Under the pieces are notes generated by a model. That model searched no databases. It was not told the origin of the DNA and saw only the letters and a program-made list of their open reading frames with translations. A program made the position numbers and the translations under genes. This document shows positions 1-6,838 of a stretch of DNA of 6,840 bases, one piece after another; the first letter of the stretch is position 1; every line of letters starts with the position of its first letter. The stretch comes from a virus (Duplodnaviria; Heunggongvirae; Uroviricota; Caudoviricetes), in the IMG/VR virus record IMGVR_UViG_2606217104_000017, one strand, 5' to 3'.

Positions 1-594
1 CTCCGGGGTAAAAAGGTCCGTACGACCATCAGCCGGAAAGCCGTTGCCGCAGGCGACCGCGTAAACCGTCAGTTCGTGGCAGAACGACCTGACCAGCTGT
101 GGGTGGCTGATTTTACTTACGTCAGCACATGGCAGGGCTTCGTCTATGTGGCGTTCATCATTGATGTGTTTGCCGGATACATTGTGGGGTGGCGGGTCTC
201 ATCGTCCATGGAGACGACATTCGTGCTGGATGCACTGGAGCAGGCGTTATGGGCCCGTCGACCGTCCGGCACGGTCCATCACAGTGATAAAGGTTCTCAG
301 TATGTATCGCTGGCCTACACACAGCGGCTTAAGGAAGCCGGATTACTGGCATCAACAGGAAGTACAGGCGACTCGTATGACAACGCGATGGCGGAGAGCA
401 TCAATGGTCTTTACAAAGCGGAGGTAATACACCGTAAGAGCTGGAAAAACCGTGCAGAAGTGGAACTGGCCACACTCACGTGGGTGGACAGGTATAACAA
501 TCGACGATTGCTGGAAAGGCTGGGCCATACTCCTCCGGCAGAAGCAGAAAAAGCTTATTATGCTTCCATCGGAAACGATGATCTGGCAGCCTGA
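1..594 (+). CDS. IS3-family transposase OrfB (DDE integrase-core domain), IS629/IS1203-like; 5' end cut by the window edge
   Basis: Frame +1 is open from nt 1 with no stop until TGA at 592-594, so the ORF-track start at 76 (GTG) is internal and the gene is truncated by the window. The translation LRGKKVRTTISRKAVAAGDRVNRQFVAERPDQLWVADFTYV...HHSDKGSQY...DNAMAESINGLYKAE carries the D, D, E catalytic residues with IS3-family spacing. Assignment to IS629/IS1203 is from memory, not a search. Confidence 0.9.
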   Translation, partial: LRGKKVRTTISRKAVAAGDRVNRQFVAERPDQLWVADFTYVSTWQGFVYVAFIIDVFAGYIVGWRVSSSMETTFVLDALEQALWARRPSGTVHHSDKGSQYVSLAYTQRLKEAGLLASTGSTGDSYDNAMAESINGLYKAEVIHRKSWKNRAEVELATLTWVDRYNNRRLLERLGHTPPAEAEKAYYASIGNDDLAA

Positions 595-757: not shown

Positions 758-2032
758 TTATTGTTTCTGAGCAAACTCAAACGGCCTGACCATCCCATCC
801 CGGTTTGCATCAAGATAATCTGCCCACCACTGTAGCATCAACCTTCGCTGCTCAAGATGTTTGGCCTTATGGGTATAGGCAGCACGAACGCTGTTGCTTT
901 CCTTGTGGCTCATTTGAAGTTCTACCGCATCTTCAGACCATAGCCCTGATTCAATCAGAGCACTACATGCCAGCGTGCGGAAACCATGACCGCAGATGTC
1001 CTGCGTGGTGTCATAGCCCATCTTACGTAGCGCTTTATTGATGGTGTTTTCACTCATGGGCTTGAACGAGTCATAACAGCCCGTAAAAATTAACCCCGCC
1101 TCATTACCTTCTTCATAGGTAAGCTGGCGGATCTCTTTCAGTATTTTAAGAGCCTGCCTGCAGAGGGGAACGAAGTGCTGGCGTTTCATTTTTGCGCCAC
1201 GCGTGGAATATTTGACGCGCTCAATCGCTTCACGCTTTTCTGGTATTACCCATAACTTACTGTTGAAGTCGATTTCTGACCATCGTGCATAGCGGAGTTC
1301 ACTGGAACGAATGAAAATCAACAGATTGAGTTTAATCGCCAGTGTAGTTAGTCCACGACCTTTGTAGGCATCAATACGTTCAAGCAGTAGCGGGATCTCT
1401 TCCAGCTCCAGTGCAGGGCGGTGTTCCGTCTCTGGTTTCTGGACAGCGCCTTCCATATCATAGGCCGGATTATGACGCATAAGCTTTTGCTGGACGGCAT
1501 GACGTAGGATCGCGGTGATGTATTGCTTAATCCGCATGGCAATTTCAAGGTAGCCGAGTGTTTCTGCATTTTTAATCGGAACAAGCAGATCACCCGTATC
1601 CAGATCTGAAACGTTGCTGTCGCCAATATCCGGGAATACATAGGTCTCAAGGCGCTTCCATACCGTATCGGCGTAATCTTCTGACCATTTTGTTTTGGTG
1701 GCAAACCAGCTTCTGGCGACGACACGGAACGAACGGGTTTTATCCCGCTTTTCCTGCAGCGCTTTTTCATCAGCCAGTTTTTTAGCGTTAGGATCGACTC
1801 CCTGAGCAAGCAGCTTTTTTGCTTCATCACGTCGTTGTCTGGCATCAGCAAGAGAAACCGCAGGGTAAACACCAATGGAAAACACTTTCTGTTTACCATC
1901 GAAGCGATAGCCTAACTGCCAGTATTTTGAACCATTGGGATGCACAAGAAGGTAGAGACCAAATCCATCAGTGAGCTTGACGGCTTTTTCCGCTGGTCTG
2001 GCATTTTTTACTTTAGTATCAGTAAGTGACAT
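758..2032 (-). CDS. int: P4-family tyrosine integrase (site-specific recombinase), 424 aa
   Basis: Translation begins MSLTDTKVKNARPAEKAVKLTDGFGLYLLVHPNGSKYWQLGYRF, the characteristic P4-type integrase N-terminus. Catalytic motifs are present: R in IRSSELRYARWSEID, HGFR (box II His/Arg), Tyr nucleophile in RAAYTHK, and the C-terminal EQRRLMLQWWADYL signature. The true start is the ATG at 2032-2030, preceded by GGAGGG with 7-nt spacing; the ORF-track start at 2098 is an upstream TTG and adds 22 residues encoded by the repeat region. Stop TAA at 760-758. Confidence 0.9.
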   Translation of the reverse strand: MSLTDTKVKNARPAEKAVKLTDGFGLYLLVHPNGSKYWQLGYRFDGKQKVFSIGVYPAVSLADARQRRDEAKKLLAQGVDPNAKKLADEKALQEKRDKTRSFRVVARSWFATKTKWSEDYADTVWKRLETYVFPDIGDSNVSDLDTGDLLVPIKNAETLGYLEIAMRIKQYITAILRHAVQQKLMRHNPAYDMEGAVQKPETEHRPALELEEIPLLLERIDAYKGRGLTTLAIKLNLLIFIRSSELRYARWSEIDFNSKLWVIPEKREAIERVKYSTRGAKMKRQHFVPLCRQALKILKEIRQLTYEEGNEAGLIFTGCYDSFKPMSENTINKALRKMGYDTTQDICGHGFRTLACSALIESGLWSEDAVELQMSHKESNSVRAAYTHKAKHLEQRRLMLQWWADYLDANRDGMVRPFEFAQKQ

Positions 2033-2049
2033 GACGGTTCCCTCCGCGT

Positions 2050-2096
2050 GCTGGTAAAACGCAAATCGAACCAGCTTTACCAGCATTTTTACCAGC
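2050..2096 (-). promoter_or_regulatory. Three copies of a 9-bp motif (TTTACCAGC direct at 2076-2084 and 2088-2096; inverted copy GCTGGTAAA at 2050-2058) just upstream of the P4-type integrase start
   Basis: Exact repeats seen directly in the sequence, 18-64 nt upstream of the integrase ATG on the minus strand. Function (operator, integrase arm-type sites or promoter element) is inferred. Confidence 0.3.
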
Positions 2097-2176
2097 AAAG
2101 TAGTGTGGGTTCGAGCGATTTTTAACGAACGAGGGTGAACCTGAAGAAGGGAGTAACCAGTTGATATAAATGCAGA

Positions 2177-2211: not shown

Positions 2212-2287
2212 TGGCTCCTCTGACTGGACTCGAACCAGTGACATACGGATTAACAGTCCGCCGTTCTACCGACTGAACTACAGAGGA
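2212..2287 (-). tRNA. asnT: tRNA-Asn (anticodon GUU), 76 nt with encoded CCA
   Basis: Reverse complement of 2212-2287 is TCCTCTGTAGTTCAGTCGGTAGAACGGCGGACTGTTAATCCGTATGTCACTGGTTCGAGTCCAGTCAGAGGAGCCA, matching E. coli tRNA-Asn as recalled, with anticodon loop CU-GUU-AA. The locus name asnT is by synteny with adjacent mtfA; E. coli has several identical asn tRNA genes, so the symbol is tentative. Confidence 0.97.
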
Positions 2288-2387: not shown

Positions 2388-3185
2388 TTAATGAACATTC
2401 GTCGCCGAAAACGAGTCTGTATCATTAGTGCGATGTAGTCTCTGCAAAGGATCTTGTTGATAAAATTGGCAGAAACGTTGCCACAATGAAGGGAAACGAG
2501 GAGCAAAAAGTTCTGGGGCGCTAAAGAAATATTCAGAAAGTACGGCAAAACATTCAGCAGGATCACTGGCAGCATAAGCATCAATGCTCGCCGCATTCTC
2601 GCCAACCAATTCGATTTCTTCCTGAATGTTGTTCATTGCAGCATGAAGATCGTGTTCCCAGCCAGCAACCTCACGCAACGGAATAAAGGGAACTCCGCTG
2701 GCGCGATCGCCGTTACGGGTGTCCAGCTTATGAGCGACTTCATGAATAATCAGGTTAAAACCAGAAGCATCAAAAGAATCTTGTATATCCAACCAGTTCA
2801 AAACGATAGGCCCTTGCTGCCAGCTCTGACCTGACTGAACAATACGTTGGTTATGCACCAGACCGATATCGTCTTCCCATTCATCATCGACCACAAATGG
2901 CGCAGGATAAATTAAGACTTCATGAAAACCATCCAGCCATTCCAGTCCTAACTCCAGAACGGGTAGGCAAAATAGAAGTGCTATCCGGCAGCTTCTTAAT
3001 GAATCCAGTTCAAAGCCCTGTAAAGGAACAAGCCGCTTTTGCTGTAAAAAACGTTCGGCAAGAGTGACTAATTTGCTTTGTTCCTGTTCCGTCAGACACG
3101 TTAAAAGGGGGATCGATAGTGCTTCCTGCCAGGGAAGGGCAGTTTGATGTGCTGATTCTTGTACTTTCCAGGGCCACTTAATCAT
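2388..3185 (-). CDS. mtfA: MtfA (Mlc titration factor A / YeeI), zinc-dependent peptidase-like protein, 265 aa
   Basis: Translation [61 protein letters not shown]...[10 protein letters not shown]... matches E. coli MtfA as recalled, including the HEVAH metallopeptidase motif. The true start is the ATG at 3185-3183; the ORF-track start at 3224 is an upstream GTG. Stop TAA at 2390-2388. Confidence 0.9.
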
Positions 3186-3234
3186 CGTTTTGCTCGCAAA
3201 CTCGTCACTTGAACAAAATTGCACGGACAGGGAC

Positions 3235-3278: not shown

Positions 3279-3368
3279 GGAGAGATGCCGGAGCGGCTGA
3301 ACGGACCGGTCTCGAAAACCGGAGTGGGGGCAACTCCACCGGGGGTTCAAATCCCCCTCTCTCCGCCA
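3279..3368 (+). tRNA. serU: tRNA-Ser (anticodon CGA), 90 nt with long variable arm and encoded CCA
   Basis: GGAGAGATGCCGGAGCGGCTGAACGGACCGGTCTCGAAAACCGGAGTGGGGGCAACTCCACCGGGGGTTCAAATCCCCCTCTCTCCGCCA: class II tRNA with anticodon loop CU-CGA-AA (3312-3314), T-stem GGGGG/CCCCC and 3' CCA. It is divergent from mtfA, as serU is in E. coli K-12 (recalled synteny). Confidence 0.97.
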
Positions 3369-3413
3369 AAATTCAATCACTTATACATCATTAAGTCAGT
3401 GACAAAAATCACA

Positions 3414-3460
3414 CTTGGAATTACTTGGAATTACTTGGAATATTTTCTTGGAATATTTTC
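3414..3460. repeat. Tandem direct repeats: 2 x CTTGGAATTA (3414-3423, 3424-3433) then 2 x CTTGGAATATTTT (3434-3446, 3447-3459); candidate integrase arm-type binding sites at attL
   Basis: Exact tandem copies seen in the sequence. They straddle the integrase stop codon (3433-3431), and the last nine integrase codons (ENIPRKYSK) are encoded by the 13-bp repeat pair. A nearby palindrome GTCAGTGAC sits at 3395-3403. Confidence 0.8.
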
Positions 3461-4456
3461 AGGTAACGGGACATCAAGTGTCGGTGAAACTTTAACCTTC
3501 CTGTCATAGATTAGCACTTGCCCCTCGGTTTTGTGACCAGAGAAAAGTTGCTTATCCCGACTGCTTCCTTCATAGTCTGAAATTCCTTTCGCCTTCAGAT
3601 CATGAAAGGTGAAGTCGGTTAAAATACCTGAAATTTTGCCTGCGCGATTTCTTGCTTCTACCCACATTTCGTTAAAGCCTTTGTACATATATCGGTTGCC
3701 GTATTGATTACTGATTACATAGGCGGATGTTGGTAACTGTTTTGCTTTTTCGATCGCCGCCTGTAATCGTGGACTCCATGCTTTTATCTGTTTTTTTCCT
3801 GTTTTCCCTTGCTGGATAAAGATTCCGTCGTTTCCAATCTGCTCCCATTTCAGCGATAACACATCGGAAACCCTCGCTGCACACAGATAGGCAATTTCCA
3901 TTGCGATAAAAACAGGAAGAGGTGCAACGCTTAATACTGCCTGGTATTCTTTGTCGGTTACATATCGTTCGCGGTTTTTGGCCTTGAATTTACTTACACC
4001 TGCACATGGGTTAGCCTTCACGTACCCTCGCTCATACCCCCAACTGTAAACGCGGGACATACTGCTTTTTTCATGGTTGGCTTGCGTTTTACTCTGTTCC
4101 CCTCTCTTGTCCATGTATCGACGGATGTGTTCTGGTTTTATGGAATCTGCCGGCACCTTACCGAATACGGCAAGCAACTTTTTTTGATGTTGCAGATAAT
4201 CTTTTTGTGTTCTTGGACTGAGGTCACTGTAATAGGCGCTGGCGAGGAATTTTTCCCACAAGCGACCGAATGTCATTGCACGATCGCGATTATTTACAGT
4301 TTCCTCATACTTTTTCCATAAAGCAGCTAAACCATCCTTGATGGCGGTTAGTGTGACAGATTCTCTGGATGTTGGTTTCCATACATAACTATATTTATTT
4401 GGGTATACATTTGGAGGTAGTTTTTCGTGTTCAGGATTTTTCCTTCGTCTTCCCAT
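3431..4456 (-). CDS. int: Lambda-family tyrosine integrase, 341 aa
   Basis: N-terminus MGRRRKNPEHEKLPPNVYPNKYSY resembles the lambda Int arm-binding domain (lambda begins MGRRRSHERRDLPPNLY, recalled). The catalytic region has R195 (CAARVSDVL), box II TFHDLK (H285, with K288 where Arg is expected), H308 (SGHKT) and the Tyr nucleophile Y317 (LIYDRK), with the 9-residue H-to-Y spacing of lambda Int. Start ATG at 4456-4454, stop TAA at 3433-3431. Confidence 0.9.
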   Translation of the reverse strand: MGRRRKNPEHEKLPPNVYPNKYSYVWKPTSRESVTLTAIKDGLAALWKKYEETVNNRDRAMTFGRLWEKFLASAYYSDLSPRTQKDYLQHQKKLLAVFGKVPADSIKPEHIRRYMDKRGEQSKTQANHEKSSMSRVYSWGYERGYVKANPCAGVSKFKAKNRERYVTDKEYQAVLSVAPLPVFIAMEIAYLCAARVSDVLSLKWEQIGNDGIFIQQGKTGKKQIKAWSPRLQAAIEKAKQLPTSAYVISNQYGNRYMYKGFNEMWVEARNRAGKISGILTDFTFHDLKAKGISDYEGSSRDKQLFSGHKTEGQVLIYDRKVKVSPTLDVPLPENIPRKYSK

Positions 4457-4659
4457 TAGATTGCACCAAAATTCGGCTCTACCTCGCGTGGTGGTAAAGT
4501 TTTATTGCAGGTAAATAGATCCCGGCTGACAATCGGTTTGCCACTACGATTGGTATAGAACGGAAGCCCGTTTTCCGTTAACCATTTTCGCTGGTGGCTT
4601 GCATATTTGCAGCCCGTTAATATTAGCAATTCATCTTCGGTTAAAAATAAGTTGCTCAT
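4456..4659 (-). CDS. xis: Small excisionase-like protein (recalled as DUF4224-type, often found upstream of phage integrases), 67 aa
   Basis: MSNLFLTEDELLILTGCKYASHQRKWLTENGLPFYTNRSGKPIVSRDLF has the size, position and motif pattern of the small integrase-coupled excisionase-like proteins, as recalled. Its TAA stop (4458-4456) overlaps the integrase ATG by one nucleotide (TAATG), implying translational coupling. Excisionase function is inferred from context. Confidence 0.6.
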   Translation of the reverse strand: MSNLFLTEDELLILTGCKYASHQRKWLTENGLPFYTNRSGKPIVSRDLFTCNKTLPPREVEPNFGAI

Positions 4660-4717: not shown

Positions 4718-6838
4718 TTAAAAATCAGCCTGACTCGGGATCAGTTTTTGCCAGATAACTGAAACGTATTTTGCCTGGTAACGGGCGTCATCAAGTGCAT
4801 TATGGCGCTCACCTTCGAATGGAATAGCCGTTCTGGCATCGAAGTCTATGGCTTTCCCCAGCTCAACGATTGTGCGTACATCGCGATCGTTGTAGTAACG
4901 CCACGGGCAGGGGATCCCCTGCCGTTCGTATGAACGGCGCAAAATCGTGTTGTCGAAGTTGGCTCCATTTCCCCAGACCTGAACAAAAAATTCACCGGAG
5001 TTTTCGTCGATAAATTCCCGCAATTGTAACAGTGCATCATCTAACTGGATTTCATCGGTCATAATGGCAGATTGCGCTTCGCGTGATTGCTTAAGCCACC
5101 ATTTAATGGTGTCCCGATCAATGACTCCGCCAGCAGTTTCCAGATCGATAGTCTTACTAAATTCCGGTCCCATATCTCCGGTTTGCGGATCGAAAAATAT
5201 TGCACCTATTGAGATGATCGGGGCATCAGGATTTTTTCCCATGGTTTCAAGGTCGATCATTAGATGGTCACACGTCCTGCTGGTGGATGTGATTTCTTGA
5301 TGACCGTTCACCTTAATTGAGTGATCTGCCGTCTCGCCAGTTTCATTATCGCTGGCATGATGCTGATTGCCGCCAGTGTTCTCCTTGTGTGGATGTTCAG
5401 CGCCTTCCATTTTCTCCGGATCATCTTCCTGAACTTCAACCTGATACTCTTCATCGAATGTTTCCTGGTATGTTGCGTCGCCCATCACCGCGCCACAATC
5501 AGGGCAGTTGCCGCCGCCGGTCTGACCGCAGGCGGTGCAGACTTTTTCCACTTCCTGTTGCGCCACTGGTTCAGGCTGTTTCGTTTCTGGCTCGTTTTGT
5601 AACGCATTTGGGCTGTTTTGTTCCGCTTTTTGGTAGTTCCGTTCCGATTCATGCTGGTTCTGGTTTACAGAATCGCGGGTCTGGATCCCCTTAACCCATT
5701 TCGGATCATTCGGGTCGCTAATCCCTGCAACAAATTCTCCGCGAGAGGCAGCAAGCAACTTATCGGCGTCAGGCTGGCTGATATTGGCTGCCTGCATAAT
5801 TTTGTTTACTTCGTCAGCGGTAACTTTTACCGGCTCTGGTTGTGCGGTCGTGTCAGATGCACCAGTATTTTGTTGTGAACCTGAGTATGTACTGTTTTTG
5901 CGGGCGAAATATTCTTCTTTCGTGATTTCAGTAGCCCCGGCAGCCAGTGCCTTATCCAGACCAGAAAGTTTGTTTGCGCGACCGTATTTTTCGCCATCCT
6001 TGTCGGTGAAGAGGAAGTAGAACGGCCCCTCACGCTCTACAGATGGTTCGACTTCCACTTTGCATTCGGTTTTTTCGTTGTCCGGAATTGCCGTTTCCAC
6101 TGCATCAGTTTCTGGTACTGACGACGAGAGAGTATCAGTTGCGCTCTGATTTGTTCCTTCATCTTCAAACACGCCCTTTGTAGTCAGGTATTCAGTAATG
6201 TATTTGTTCAGTGCCACAGGGTCTTTGTGAATGTCGATCGGACGTTCACGGACAAGGCCAAAAATAGTCTGGCGGTCGTAGCGAAGGGCATCAGGCTGTT
6301 TGCGCATTGATGTCGAGATACGCTTCCAGTCTTCGCGGTCGTTGTCGATAACTTCATTTTTTGCCCAGCGATGGATGCTGCCGTCAATGTTTCCGGCATC
6401 CACATCACCAGGCCAGAGAGCGTAGGCCAGTTCGTCATCCAGTGTTTTCCATGTCTGCTTGTATTCGCGATGAATGGCAGCAATGACCGGGCTGATTTTT
6501 CCTGTTGAATTTTCAGTGTGCTGTTGATTGACTCTGGCGCGGGCGAGATCAACAACAGACGTGTATTTTCCGGTTTCCTTGCGTTCACCTTCGCGACGTT
6601 TTTTCCAGATGCGCATCTCTGCCTGAATTTCGGGCCATTTGGCACCAGGCTTACATTTATGCTTAACCCACCCGATGGCATGCAGCTTAAGCTCCGGATA
6701 CATGGCGTTAACTTCTGGCATTTTCATCAACGCTTCAACGATATGTCCGTTGAATGTTGCCATGTCTTCCTGCAACAATTCCTGTGCGCTAATAACCATA
6801 TCAACGGTGATGTTTTCACATGTGTCGAACTTAACCAT
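4718..6838 (-). CDS. Large prophage protein (706 aa) with C-terminal DnaQ-like DEDDh 3'-5' exonuclease domain, central acidic low-complexity linker with a C4 zinc ribbon, and an N-terminal region of uncertain homology; possibly 5'-partial
   Basis: The C-terminal roughly 185 residues (about 4718-5280) carry Exo I MIDLETMG (D528, E530), Exo [10 protein letters not shown] (D628) and Exo [12 protein letters not shown] (H679-x4-D684) in canonical DEDDh order. The zinc ribbon [16 protein letters not shown] (C-x2-C-x8-C-x2-C) is encoded at 5495-5539. Residues about 400-520 are strongly acidic and Q/N/E/H-rich. The ATG at 6838-6836 is only 2 nt from the window end, so the real start may lie upstream. 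Stop TAA at 4720-4718. Confidence 0.8.

Follow-up and report, generated by a model that had tools for sequence, protein, structure and literature searches.

Background

Arg-II, the arginine in box II of the active site of tyrosine recombinases, is nearly universal: among 12,049 of these enzymes the position is occupied by Arg in 99.1% and by Lys in 0.5% (Gibb et al., Table 1, PMC2943603). A stretch of viral DNA of 6,840 nt, one strand of the IMG/VR record IMGVR_UViG_2606217104_000017 (from here: the window; all positions refer to the whole stretch), encodes a lambda-type integrase (gene int, protein Int) with a lysine, K288, at just this place. Is this lysine a sign of decay or a feature that the enzyme has inherited? 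The first-pass annotation of the sequence had offered two options, a functional, subfamily-specific variant of the active site and an attenuated, domesticated integrase.

Here we report that K288 represents a state that is fixed and inherited in a large clade with active members, a documented minority variant and not a sign of decay. Judged from sequence comparisons, Lys very probably replaced Arg-II once, anciently, in a clade of gammaproteobacterial phage integrases and has been kept by selection since then. The evidence speaks for the first of the two options and against the second.

Results

Lysine occupies the Arg-II position of an otherwise intact integrase

By its sequence and its structural model, Int is a member of the tyrosine recombinase family with the heterobivalent architecture of the lambda type. 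It matched PF00589 with 43.8 bits against a gathering cut-off of 27.1 (E = 3e-11), as well as PF22022 and PF14659, the central and SAM-like N-terminal domains (Pfam), and PHROG 1 'integrase' at E = 1.4e-53. Among the sequences in the PDB, lambda Int was its sole strong relative (phmmer, E = 8e-13), and the alignment of the two extended over the full length, starting from residue 1 in both proteins (residues 1-313 on 1-338) with the shared MGRRR...LPPN(L/V)Y. In the AlphaFold model (pLDDT 95.3), residues 17-58 form a three-stranded sheet plus helix. The best Foldseek matches of this model were the lambda Int structures 1z1b, 5j0n and 1z1g, and lambda Int, Tn1549 Int, XerA, IntI, XerD and Cre were each matched with probability 1.00.

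The first-pass annotation had read a lysine at the box-II arginine position, next to a histidine in the same TFH context as in lambda, and this reading was confirmed. The translated box II is H-D-L-K, and phmmer set TFHDLKAKG of Int on TFHELRSLS of lambda Int, which places K288 on lambda R311. An alignment of 120 relatives plus lambda Int made with MAFFT gave the same register and assigned lambda R212, K235, H308, R311, H333 and Y342 to R195, K218, H285, K288, H308 and Y317, respectively (Table 1). The distance of 9 residues between His-III and the nucleophilic Tyr is that of lambda, as had been noted. The gene had also been described as otherwise intact and coupled to xis; both statements are correct, the xis-like open reading frame (ORF) overlapping the int start by one base (TAATG).

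Since K288 is the direct reading of a single codon, chance is not at issue here. The lysine might still be misaligned, with the true Arg-II located elsewhere and K288 lying outside the active site. Identity to lambda Int is only ~21-23%, R300 is found 12 residues downstream, and R319 (Tyr+2) is highly conserved. We nevertheless consider such a misalignment very improbable, because the TFH-x-x-K/R register, with identities on its flanks, was obtained by two independent methods and because sister proteins with Arg at this position read FHD[LI]RAK, which is the same motif as FHD[LI]KAK. R300 is not conserved (K in the ST64B integrase, A in that of ZF40). Positions 283-299 hold no conserved Arg, with at most 6 Arg at any position among the 82 Lys-type relatives described below, in agreement with the earlier statement that no Arg is nearby. 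At Tyr+2, Arg-type sequences often have a basic residue as well (R in 21, K in 8 of 36). Both R300, being variable, and R319, whose basic character is common to the Arg-type relatives, were therefore rejected as substitute arginines.

Table 1. Features of the window, with the active-site residues of Int and their codons.
Feature	Position	Strand	Basis or remark
IS3-family transposase orfB fragment (rve domains)	76-594	+	Cut by window start; adjoins P4-like integrase gene
P4-like integrase (Arm-DNA-bind_3, Phage_int_M, Phage_integrase domains)	758-2098	-	Adjoins tRNA-Asn
tRNA-Asn (asnT)	2212-2287	-	tRNA prediction
mtfA	2388-3224		
serU, tRNA-Ser(CGA), integration target	3279-3368	+	ARAGORN; convergent with int, 62 bp from int stop
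Attachment (att) core, 31-bp 3' end of serU (ACCGGGGGTTCAAATCCCCCTCTCTCCGCCA)	3338-3368	+	Exact copy at annotated far end of Sakai Sp14
Four tandem CTTGGAAT-containing repeats (starts 3413, 3423, 3433, 3446)	3413-3455	.	Repeat search; candidate arm sites
int	3431-4456	-	Intact ORF of 341 aa; predicted lambda-type tyrosine integrase with arm-binding N-terminal, core-binding and catalytic domains
D318, directly after the nucleophile	3503-3505	-	Asp/Asn in Lys-type versus hydrophobic in Arg-type
Y317 (TAT), nucleophile, aligns with lambda Y342	3506-3508	-	Alignment; 99% conserved in relatives
H308 (CAC), His-III, aligns with lambda H333	3533-3535	-	Alignment
Box II H-D-L-K, His-II H285 and Lys K288 at the Arg-II position	3593-3604	-	Translation, alignment
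K288 (AAG), aligns with lambda R311 (Arg-II)	3595-3593	-	Codon read and alignment
H285 (CAT), His-II, aligns with lambda H308	3604-3602	-	Alignment
K218 (AAA), beta-hairpin general-acid Lys, aligns with lambda K235	3803-3805	-	Invariant
D198 (GAT), Asp/Glu position, aligns with lambda D215	3863-3865	-	D or E in 82/82 Lys-type relatives
R195 (AGG), Arg-I, aligns with lambda R212	3872-3874	-	Alignment; invariant in Lys and Arg groups
C192, aligns with lambda T209, three residues before Arg-I	3881-3883	-	Strongest co-variation with Lys-288
xis-like gene, 67-aa DUF4224 protein	4456-4659	-	Stop overlaps int ATG; PF13986 E = 2.8e-16; PHROG 1266 'excisionase' E = 1.7e-21
706-aa ORF, C-terminal Rv2179c-like 3'-5' exoribonuclease domain	4718-6838	-	Domain E = 2.4e-67; upstream of xis

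Lysine is fixed throughout a clade of phage integrases

A multiple alignment and a survey of homologues for K versus R had been proposed in the first-pass annotation, and both were carried out. The motif H-D-[LI]-K was present in all 120 nearest clusters of 90% identity, which span 55-99% identity to Int and originate from Escherichia, Salmonella, Klebsiella, Citrobacter, Dickeya, Pectobacterium, Sodalis, Hamiltonella, Gilliamella and others. For a wider view, 50%-identity representatives were searched with HMMER, which yielded 269 proteins at E <= 1e-30; the full-length members (>= 280 aa) of the best 150 of these 269 were aligned together with Int and lambda Int. The 119 K- or R-type sequences in this alignment divided into 82 with Lys (32-60% identical to Int) and 37 with Arg (29-40%). 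The two groups have a common motif that differs in one residue, FHD[LI]KAKG versus FHD[LI]RAK, and the other catalytic residues are invariant among these relatives.

A neighbour-joining tree with lambda Int as the root grouped the Lys-type sequences (82 of 82) in one pure clade with Int inside it. Fitch parsimony placed Arg at the root and required a single Arg-to-Lys change, a single origin that is read from this one neighbour-joining tree. Lys is thus found without exception in a monophyletic group of at least 82 50%-identity clusters, which includes the integrases of Sp14, ST64B and ZF40, and is a family trait rather than something peculiar to this gene. We conclude that a sizeable share of the natural cases of Lys at Arg-II probably belongs to this one clade of phage integrases.

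A scan of one genome per species located 276 loci with Lys-type relatives, a number that describes breadth and not the frequency of K over R, as the search pattern itself included Lys. These loci span the Enterobacterales, Aeromonadales, Alteromonadales, Vibrionales, Pseudomonas and Oceanospirillales. The codon for the lysine was AAG in 41 and AAA in 39 of the 80 loci kept from the scan; such synonymous turnover at a fixed residue points to selection on the amino acid. The first-pass annotation had expected this codon to be informative, whether conserved or lost, and rightly so.

These data also bear on a strain-specific mutation or sequencing error. AGG and AAG differ by a single transition, which is all that such an accident would need. 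The idea is refuted by the occurrence of identical Int proteins (100%) in E. coli ECMA0423 and Shigella flexneri SFBU1023, by the coverage of the int-xis-exo segment at >= 80% in 816 of 5,426 complete E. coli genomes and by the Lys in 120 of 120 clusters; its probability is negligible.

Active-site variation of another kind was seen in the wider family, where the Arg-type integrases of LESphi2 and KL3 have Arg in place of His-II (QFRDIR and QFRDLR, respectively), a natural variant in phages that are known as temperate.

Evidence for activity of clade members and of other enzymes with lysine at Arg-II

Several members of the clade come from elements with documented mobility. The Int of prophage Sp14 of strain Sakai (ECs_2773), located at serU, is 98% identical to the Int studied here and has HDLK; circular attP junctions of Sp14 were detected and quantified after treatment with mitomycin C (PMC2669165). 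The integrase of Salmonella phage ST64B, also with HDLK, is 59% identical. The ST64B prophage excises under stress (PMC12455584), and its known defect is a frameshift in a tail gene, not in int (PMC5322425). HDLK is likewise present in the integrase of Pectobacterium phage ZF40, which is known to be temperate and to which prophages in Yersinia are related (PMC3391216), and the Lys motif occurs in the integrases of Klebsiella phage KpF5 and Pseudomonas phage Dobby. Moreover, insertions at several tRNA targets in dozens of genera imply many independent integration events, not dead enzymes. Going by these comparisons, int most likely encodes a functional, ordinary heterobivalent tyrosine integrase.

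Some records were considered and set aside. The Int of phiCTX was rejected as a proven clade member because its best BLASTP segment reached only E = 0.035, despite the HDLK in the phiCTX-like Dobby; that the Dobby and phiCTX integrases are the same is excluded, since the Dobby paper confirms that the two differ. Escherichia phage vB_EcoM-606R7 (ON470580.1, Int 99.7% identical) could be taken for a free phage, but this record is a partial genome with a chromosomal flank and does not provide evidence for activity. It also holds serU, mtfA, tRNAs including asnT, split integrase fragments and ybtS, and is not a packaged phage genome.

Lysine at Arg-II has been studied in other enzymes. [quoted passage not shown] A natural Lys-type enzyme, Pal_Y-Int_1, integrated site-specifically in 18.7% of the Pseudomonas putida cells that received the plasmid (2026 study, PMC12884075). 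Lys at Arg-II is hence a recognised, rare and catalytically tolerable state that was already known.

Several points weigh against the view that the lysine of Int is a fully functional family trait. Excision of Sp14 was weak and occurred only after mitomycin C together with regional replication from the neighbouring prophage Sp15 (PMC2669165), and the reintegration of ST64B was partly attributed to a different, chromosomal integrase, IntA (PMC12455584). Cre R292K builds up the covalent intermediate (PMC2943603), which points to a ligation defect and makes a cost of Lys plausible. A second natural Lys-type integrase, Pal_Y-Int_2, failed in the assay (PMC12884075); Pal_Y-Int_1 itself is a precedent for Lys at Arg-II from outside the set of sequences in the tree. 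The genome scan, with Lys in its pattern, informs on breadth and codon usage only, not on the K/R ratio. In the literature we found no biochemical or genetic test of this Int or of K288, and nothing under the motif name 'HxxK'.

An attenuated or domesticated integrase, in which Lys cripples catalysis so that the prophage can in effect no longer leave the chromosome, or in which int serves some other purpose, would accommodate the weak, conditional excision of Sp14, the ligation defect of Cre R292K, the residual activity of TopIB R223K and the inactivity of Pal_Y-Int_2; in addition, many lambdoid prophages of O157 are defective in other functions (PMC2669165). It is improbable all the same. The clade, with temperate and excising phages among its members, is deep (32-99% identity) and has Lys throughout; no variation is seen at the other catalytic residues either, unlike in a pattern of decay, and AAG and AAA interchange as expected under selection on the amino acid. 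The insertions at various tRNA genes in dozens of genera need active integration, both ends of Sp14 carry an intact att core, and conservation extends to the xis-int module. That Lys might prove to be the norm in a large and demonstrably active clade, in which case it would be a family trait, had been foreseen by the first-pass annotation; this has largely come true, the evidence being direct for a few members and indirect for the clade as a whole.

Attachment site, candidate arm sites and putative excisionase

The window holds the int-proximal end of the prophage only, and the second copy of the core was read in Sakai Sp14. There, the 31 bp of the serU 3' end are duplicated at the far boundary of the prophage, which defines them as the att core used by phages of this type that insert at serU. 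A tRNA gene convergent with int and ~60-160 bp downstream of it was found in 41 of 60 related loci scanned, in many genera. This was mostly the tRNA-Leu(taa) gene of the glyW-cysT-leuZ cluster, and Ser(cga), Trp(cca) and Leu(caa) were also observed. Over ~40 loci, most Lys-type integrases of other genera (Yersinia, Serratia, Xenorhabdus, Pantoea, Aeromonas, Glaciecola, Photobacterium and others) adjoined Leu(taa) in a Gly-Cys-Leu tRNA cluster, and a few adjoined Trp(cca) or Leu(caa); serU specificity as in E. coli is in the minority among Lys-type integrases.

The CTTGGAAT repeats are located between the att core and the int stop codon, which they overlap, at 45-87 bp from the core. One inverted copy (ATTCCAAG) is present in Sakai, ~140 bp inward from the far end of Sp14. 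The P' arm sites of lambda (P'1-P'3) occupy the corresponding place. By comparison with these in position, and from their 10-bp phasing, the repeats are plausible candidates for P' arm-type binding sites of Int.

Of 80 related loci, 62 have a DUF4224 homologue immediately before int, as do ST64B, ZF40 and KpF5. In previous work, ZF40 was described as 'int only' (PMC3391216), and the Xis of Sp4/Sp14 was judged to be probably non-functional for want of a DNA-binding motif (PMC2669165). The conserved pairing of DUF4224 genes with int suggests that the DUF4224 protein is the normal directionality factor of the Lys clade, including the "Xis" of Sp4/Sp14.

Beyond the integration module, the exonuclease gene upstream of xis probably runs past the end of the window, its counterpart in Sakai being annotated with 2,472 bp (823 codons). 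On the other side of serU, the region around asnT looks like an HPI-type island with an insertion sequence beside its integrase; in a related record the equivalent island runs on into yersiniabactin genes (ybtS). The P4-like integrase of this region has a canonical box II, H-G-F-R, and so provides a contrast to the Lys-type enzyme within the same window.

Discussion

A lysine in the place of Arg-II

In all likelihood, the window contains an ordinary lambda-type module in which K288 would give the scissile phosphate the positive charge that normally comes from Arg-II. Int would be the integrase of a lambdoid prophage at serU, of the CP-933U/Sp14 type, within an ordinary integration and excision module. 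Its N-terminal domain would bind the arm sites, with the CTTGGAAT repeats as candidates, and the core-binding and catalytic domains would act on the 31-bp core at the 3' end of the tRNA-Ser gene. In catalysis, Y317 would act as the nucleophile on the scissile phosphate, with R195 and K288 neutralising its non-bridging oxygens in the transition state; the proton for the 5'-O leaving group would come from K218. The DUF4224 protein would serve as the directionality factor.

In the transition-state structure, Arg-II makes hydrogen bonds to a non-bridging oxygen and to the tyrosine oxygen (PMC2943603). A lysine can make the contact to the non-bridging oxygen, but not both contacts optimally. We infer that the epsilon-ammonium group of the lysine contacts the phosphate in the place of the guanidinium group and that the remainder of the active site is adjusted to this exchange.

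Residues that differ between the Lys and Arg groups may be related to such an adaptation. The column of C192, which co-varies most strongly with Lys-288, holds Cys in 71 of 82 Lys-type sequences versus Thr in 34 of 36 Arg-type sequences, and D318 also separates the groups (Table 1). Further clade-specific residues that changed on the Lys branch are G291, G297 and K302. Because there was a single Arg-to-Lys event, compensation and co-inheritance are statistically indistinguishable. It is a speculative and rather doubtful idea that the Lys clade represents a long-lived natural solution without the bidentate Arg-II contact, in which C192, D318/N318, G291, G297 and K302 are compensating changes. 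If this were true, such changes could restore ligation or shift the balance between cleavage and ligation, for instance towards longer-lived covalent intermediates or an altered control of directionality together with the DUF4224 protein, and the clade would be a ready-made system to dissect the role of Arg-II.

The value of K288 as a discovery is small, as this is a widely distributed integrase of the CP-933U/Sp14 type with a recorded minority state. Its practical consequence is that integrity filters which demand a strict R-H-R-Y tetrad would wrongly flag the whole Lys clade as defective. The scale of this error would amount to 276 loci in species-representative genomes and, for the region studied here, to ~15% of the complete E. 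coli genomes. Furthermore, the Lys clade and its Arg-type sister group (FHD[LI]RAK) form a clean comparative pair for the role of Arg-II in ligation.

Comparison with known systems

The same substitution at the same position has been made in Cre (R292K), vaccinia TopIB (R223K) and the equivalents in XerC/D, in which Lys supports phosphoryl transfer (PMC2943603). These engineered mutants have a background adapted to Arg, lower activity and a covalent intermediate, whereas Int has Lys as its wild-type residue, together with the clade-specific C192 and D318. A natural parallel is Pal_Y-Int_1, encoded on an island of Pseudomonas alcaligenes and belonging to the 'Y-BPP1Arm' type, which has Lys at Arg-II and integrates site-specifically (PMC12884075). 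The integrase of BPP-1, a candidate link to this type, had no significant similarity to the Int of the window.

Lambda Int (1z1b, 1z1g, 5j0n) has the three-domain fold in common with Int (Foldseek E = 1.7e-16, TM ~0.68 over the full length), as well as the catalytic positions, the spacing between His-III and Tyr and the N-terminal arm-binding motif MGRRR...LPPN(L/V)Y. The low identity noted above and R311 in the place of Lys set the two enzymes apart. The systems also differ in their directionality factors, probably a DUF4224 protein in the window versus Xis in lambda, and in their targets, lambda using attB between gal and bio and the prophage in the window the 3' end of a tRNA gene.

The integrases Sb28 of ST64B, gp02 of ZF40 and that of KpF5 belong to the same clade, with 50-59% identity, FHDLKAKG and a DUF4224-type gene directly upstream. 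Those of ST64B and KpF5 are ~10 residues shorter at the C-terminus. The three phages have other hosts, unrelated phage backbones, ZF40 being a dwarf myovirus, and probably other att sites.

The closest known system is Sp14 of O157:H7 Sakai, whose Int is equivalent to the CP-933U Int of EDL933 and aligns with the Int of the window over its full length. The neighbourhoods match in the exonuclease, DUF4224, int, serU, mtfA and asnT genes and in the 31-bp att core. Beyond asnT they diverge, with the P4-like integrase and the IS3-family element in the window versus an adhesin pseudogene in Sakai. The two integrases differ by eight substitutions and an indel of one residue, none of which affects a catalytic position.

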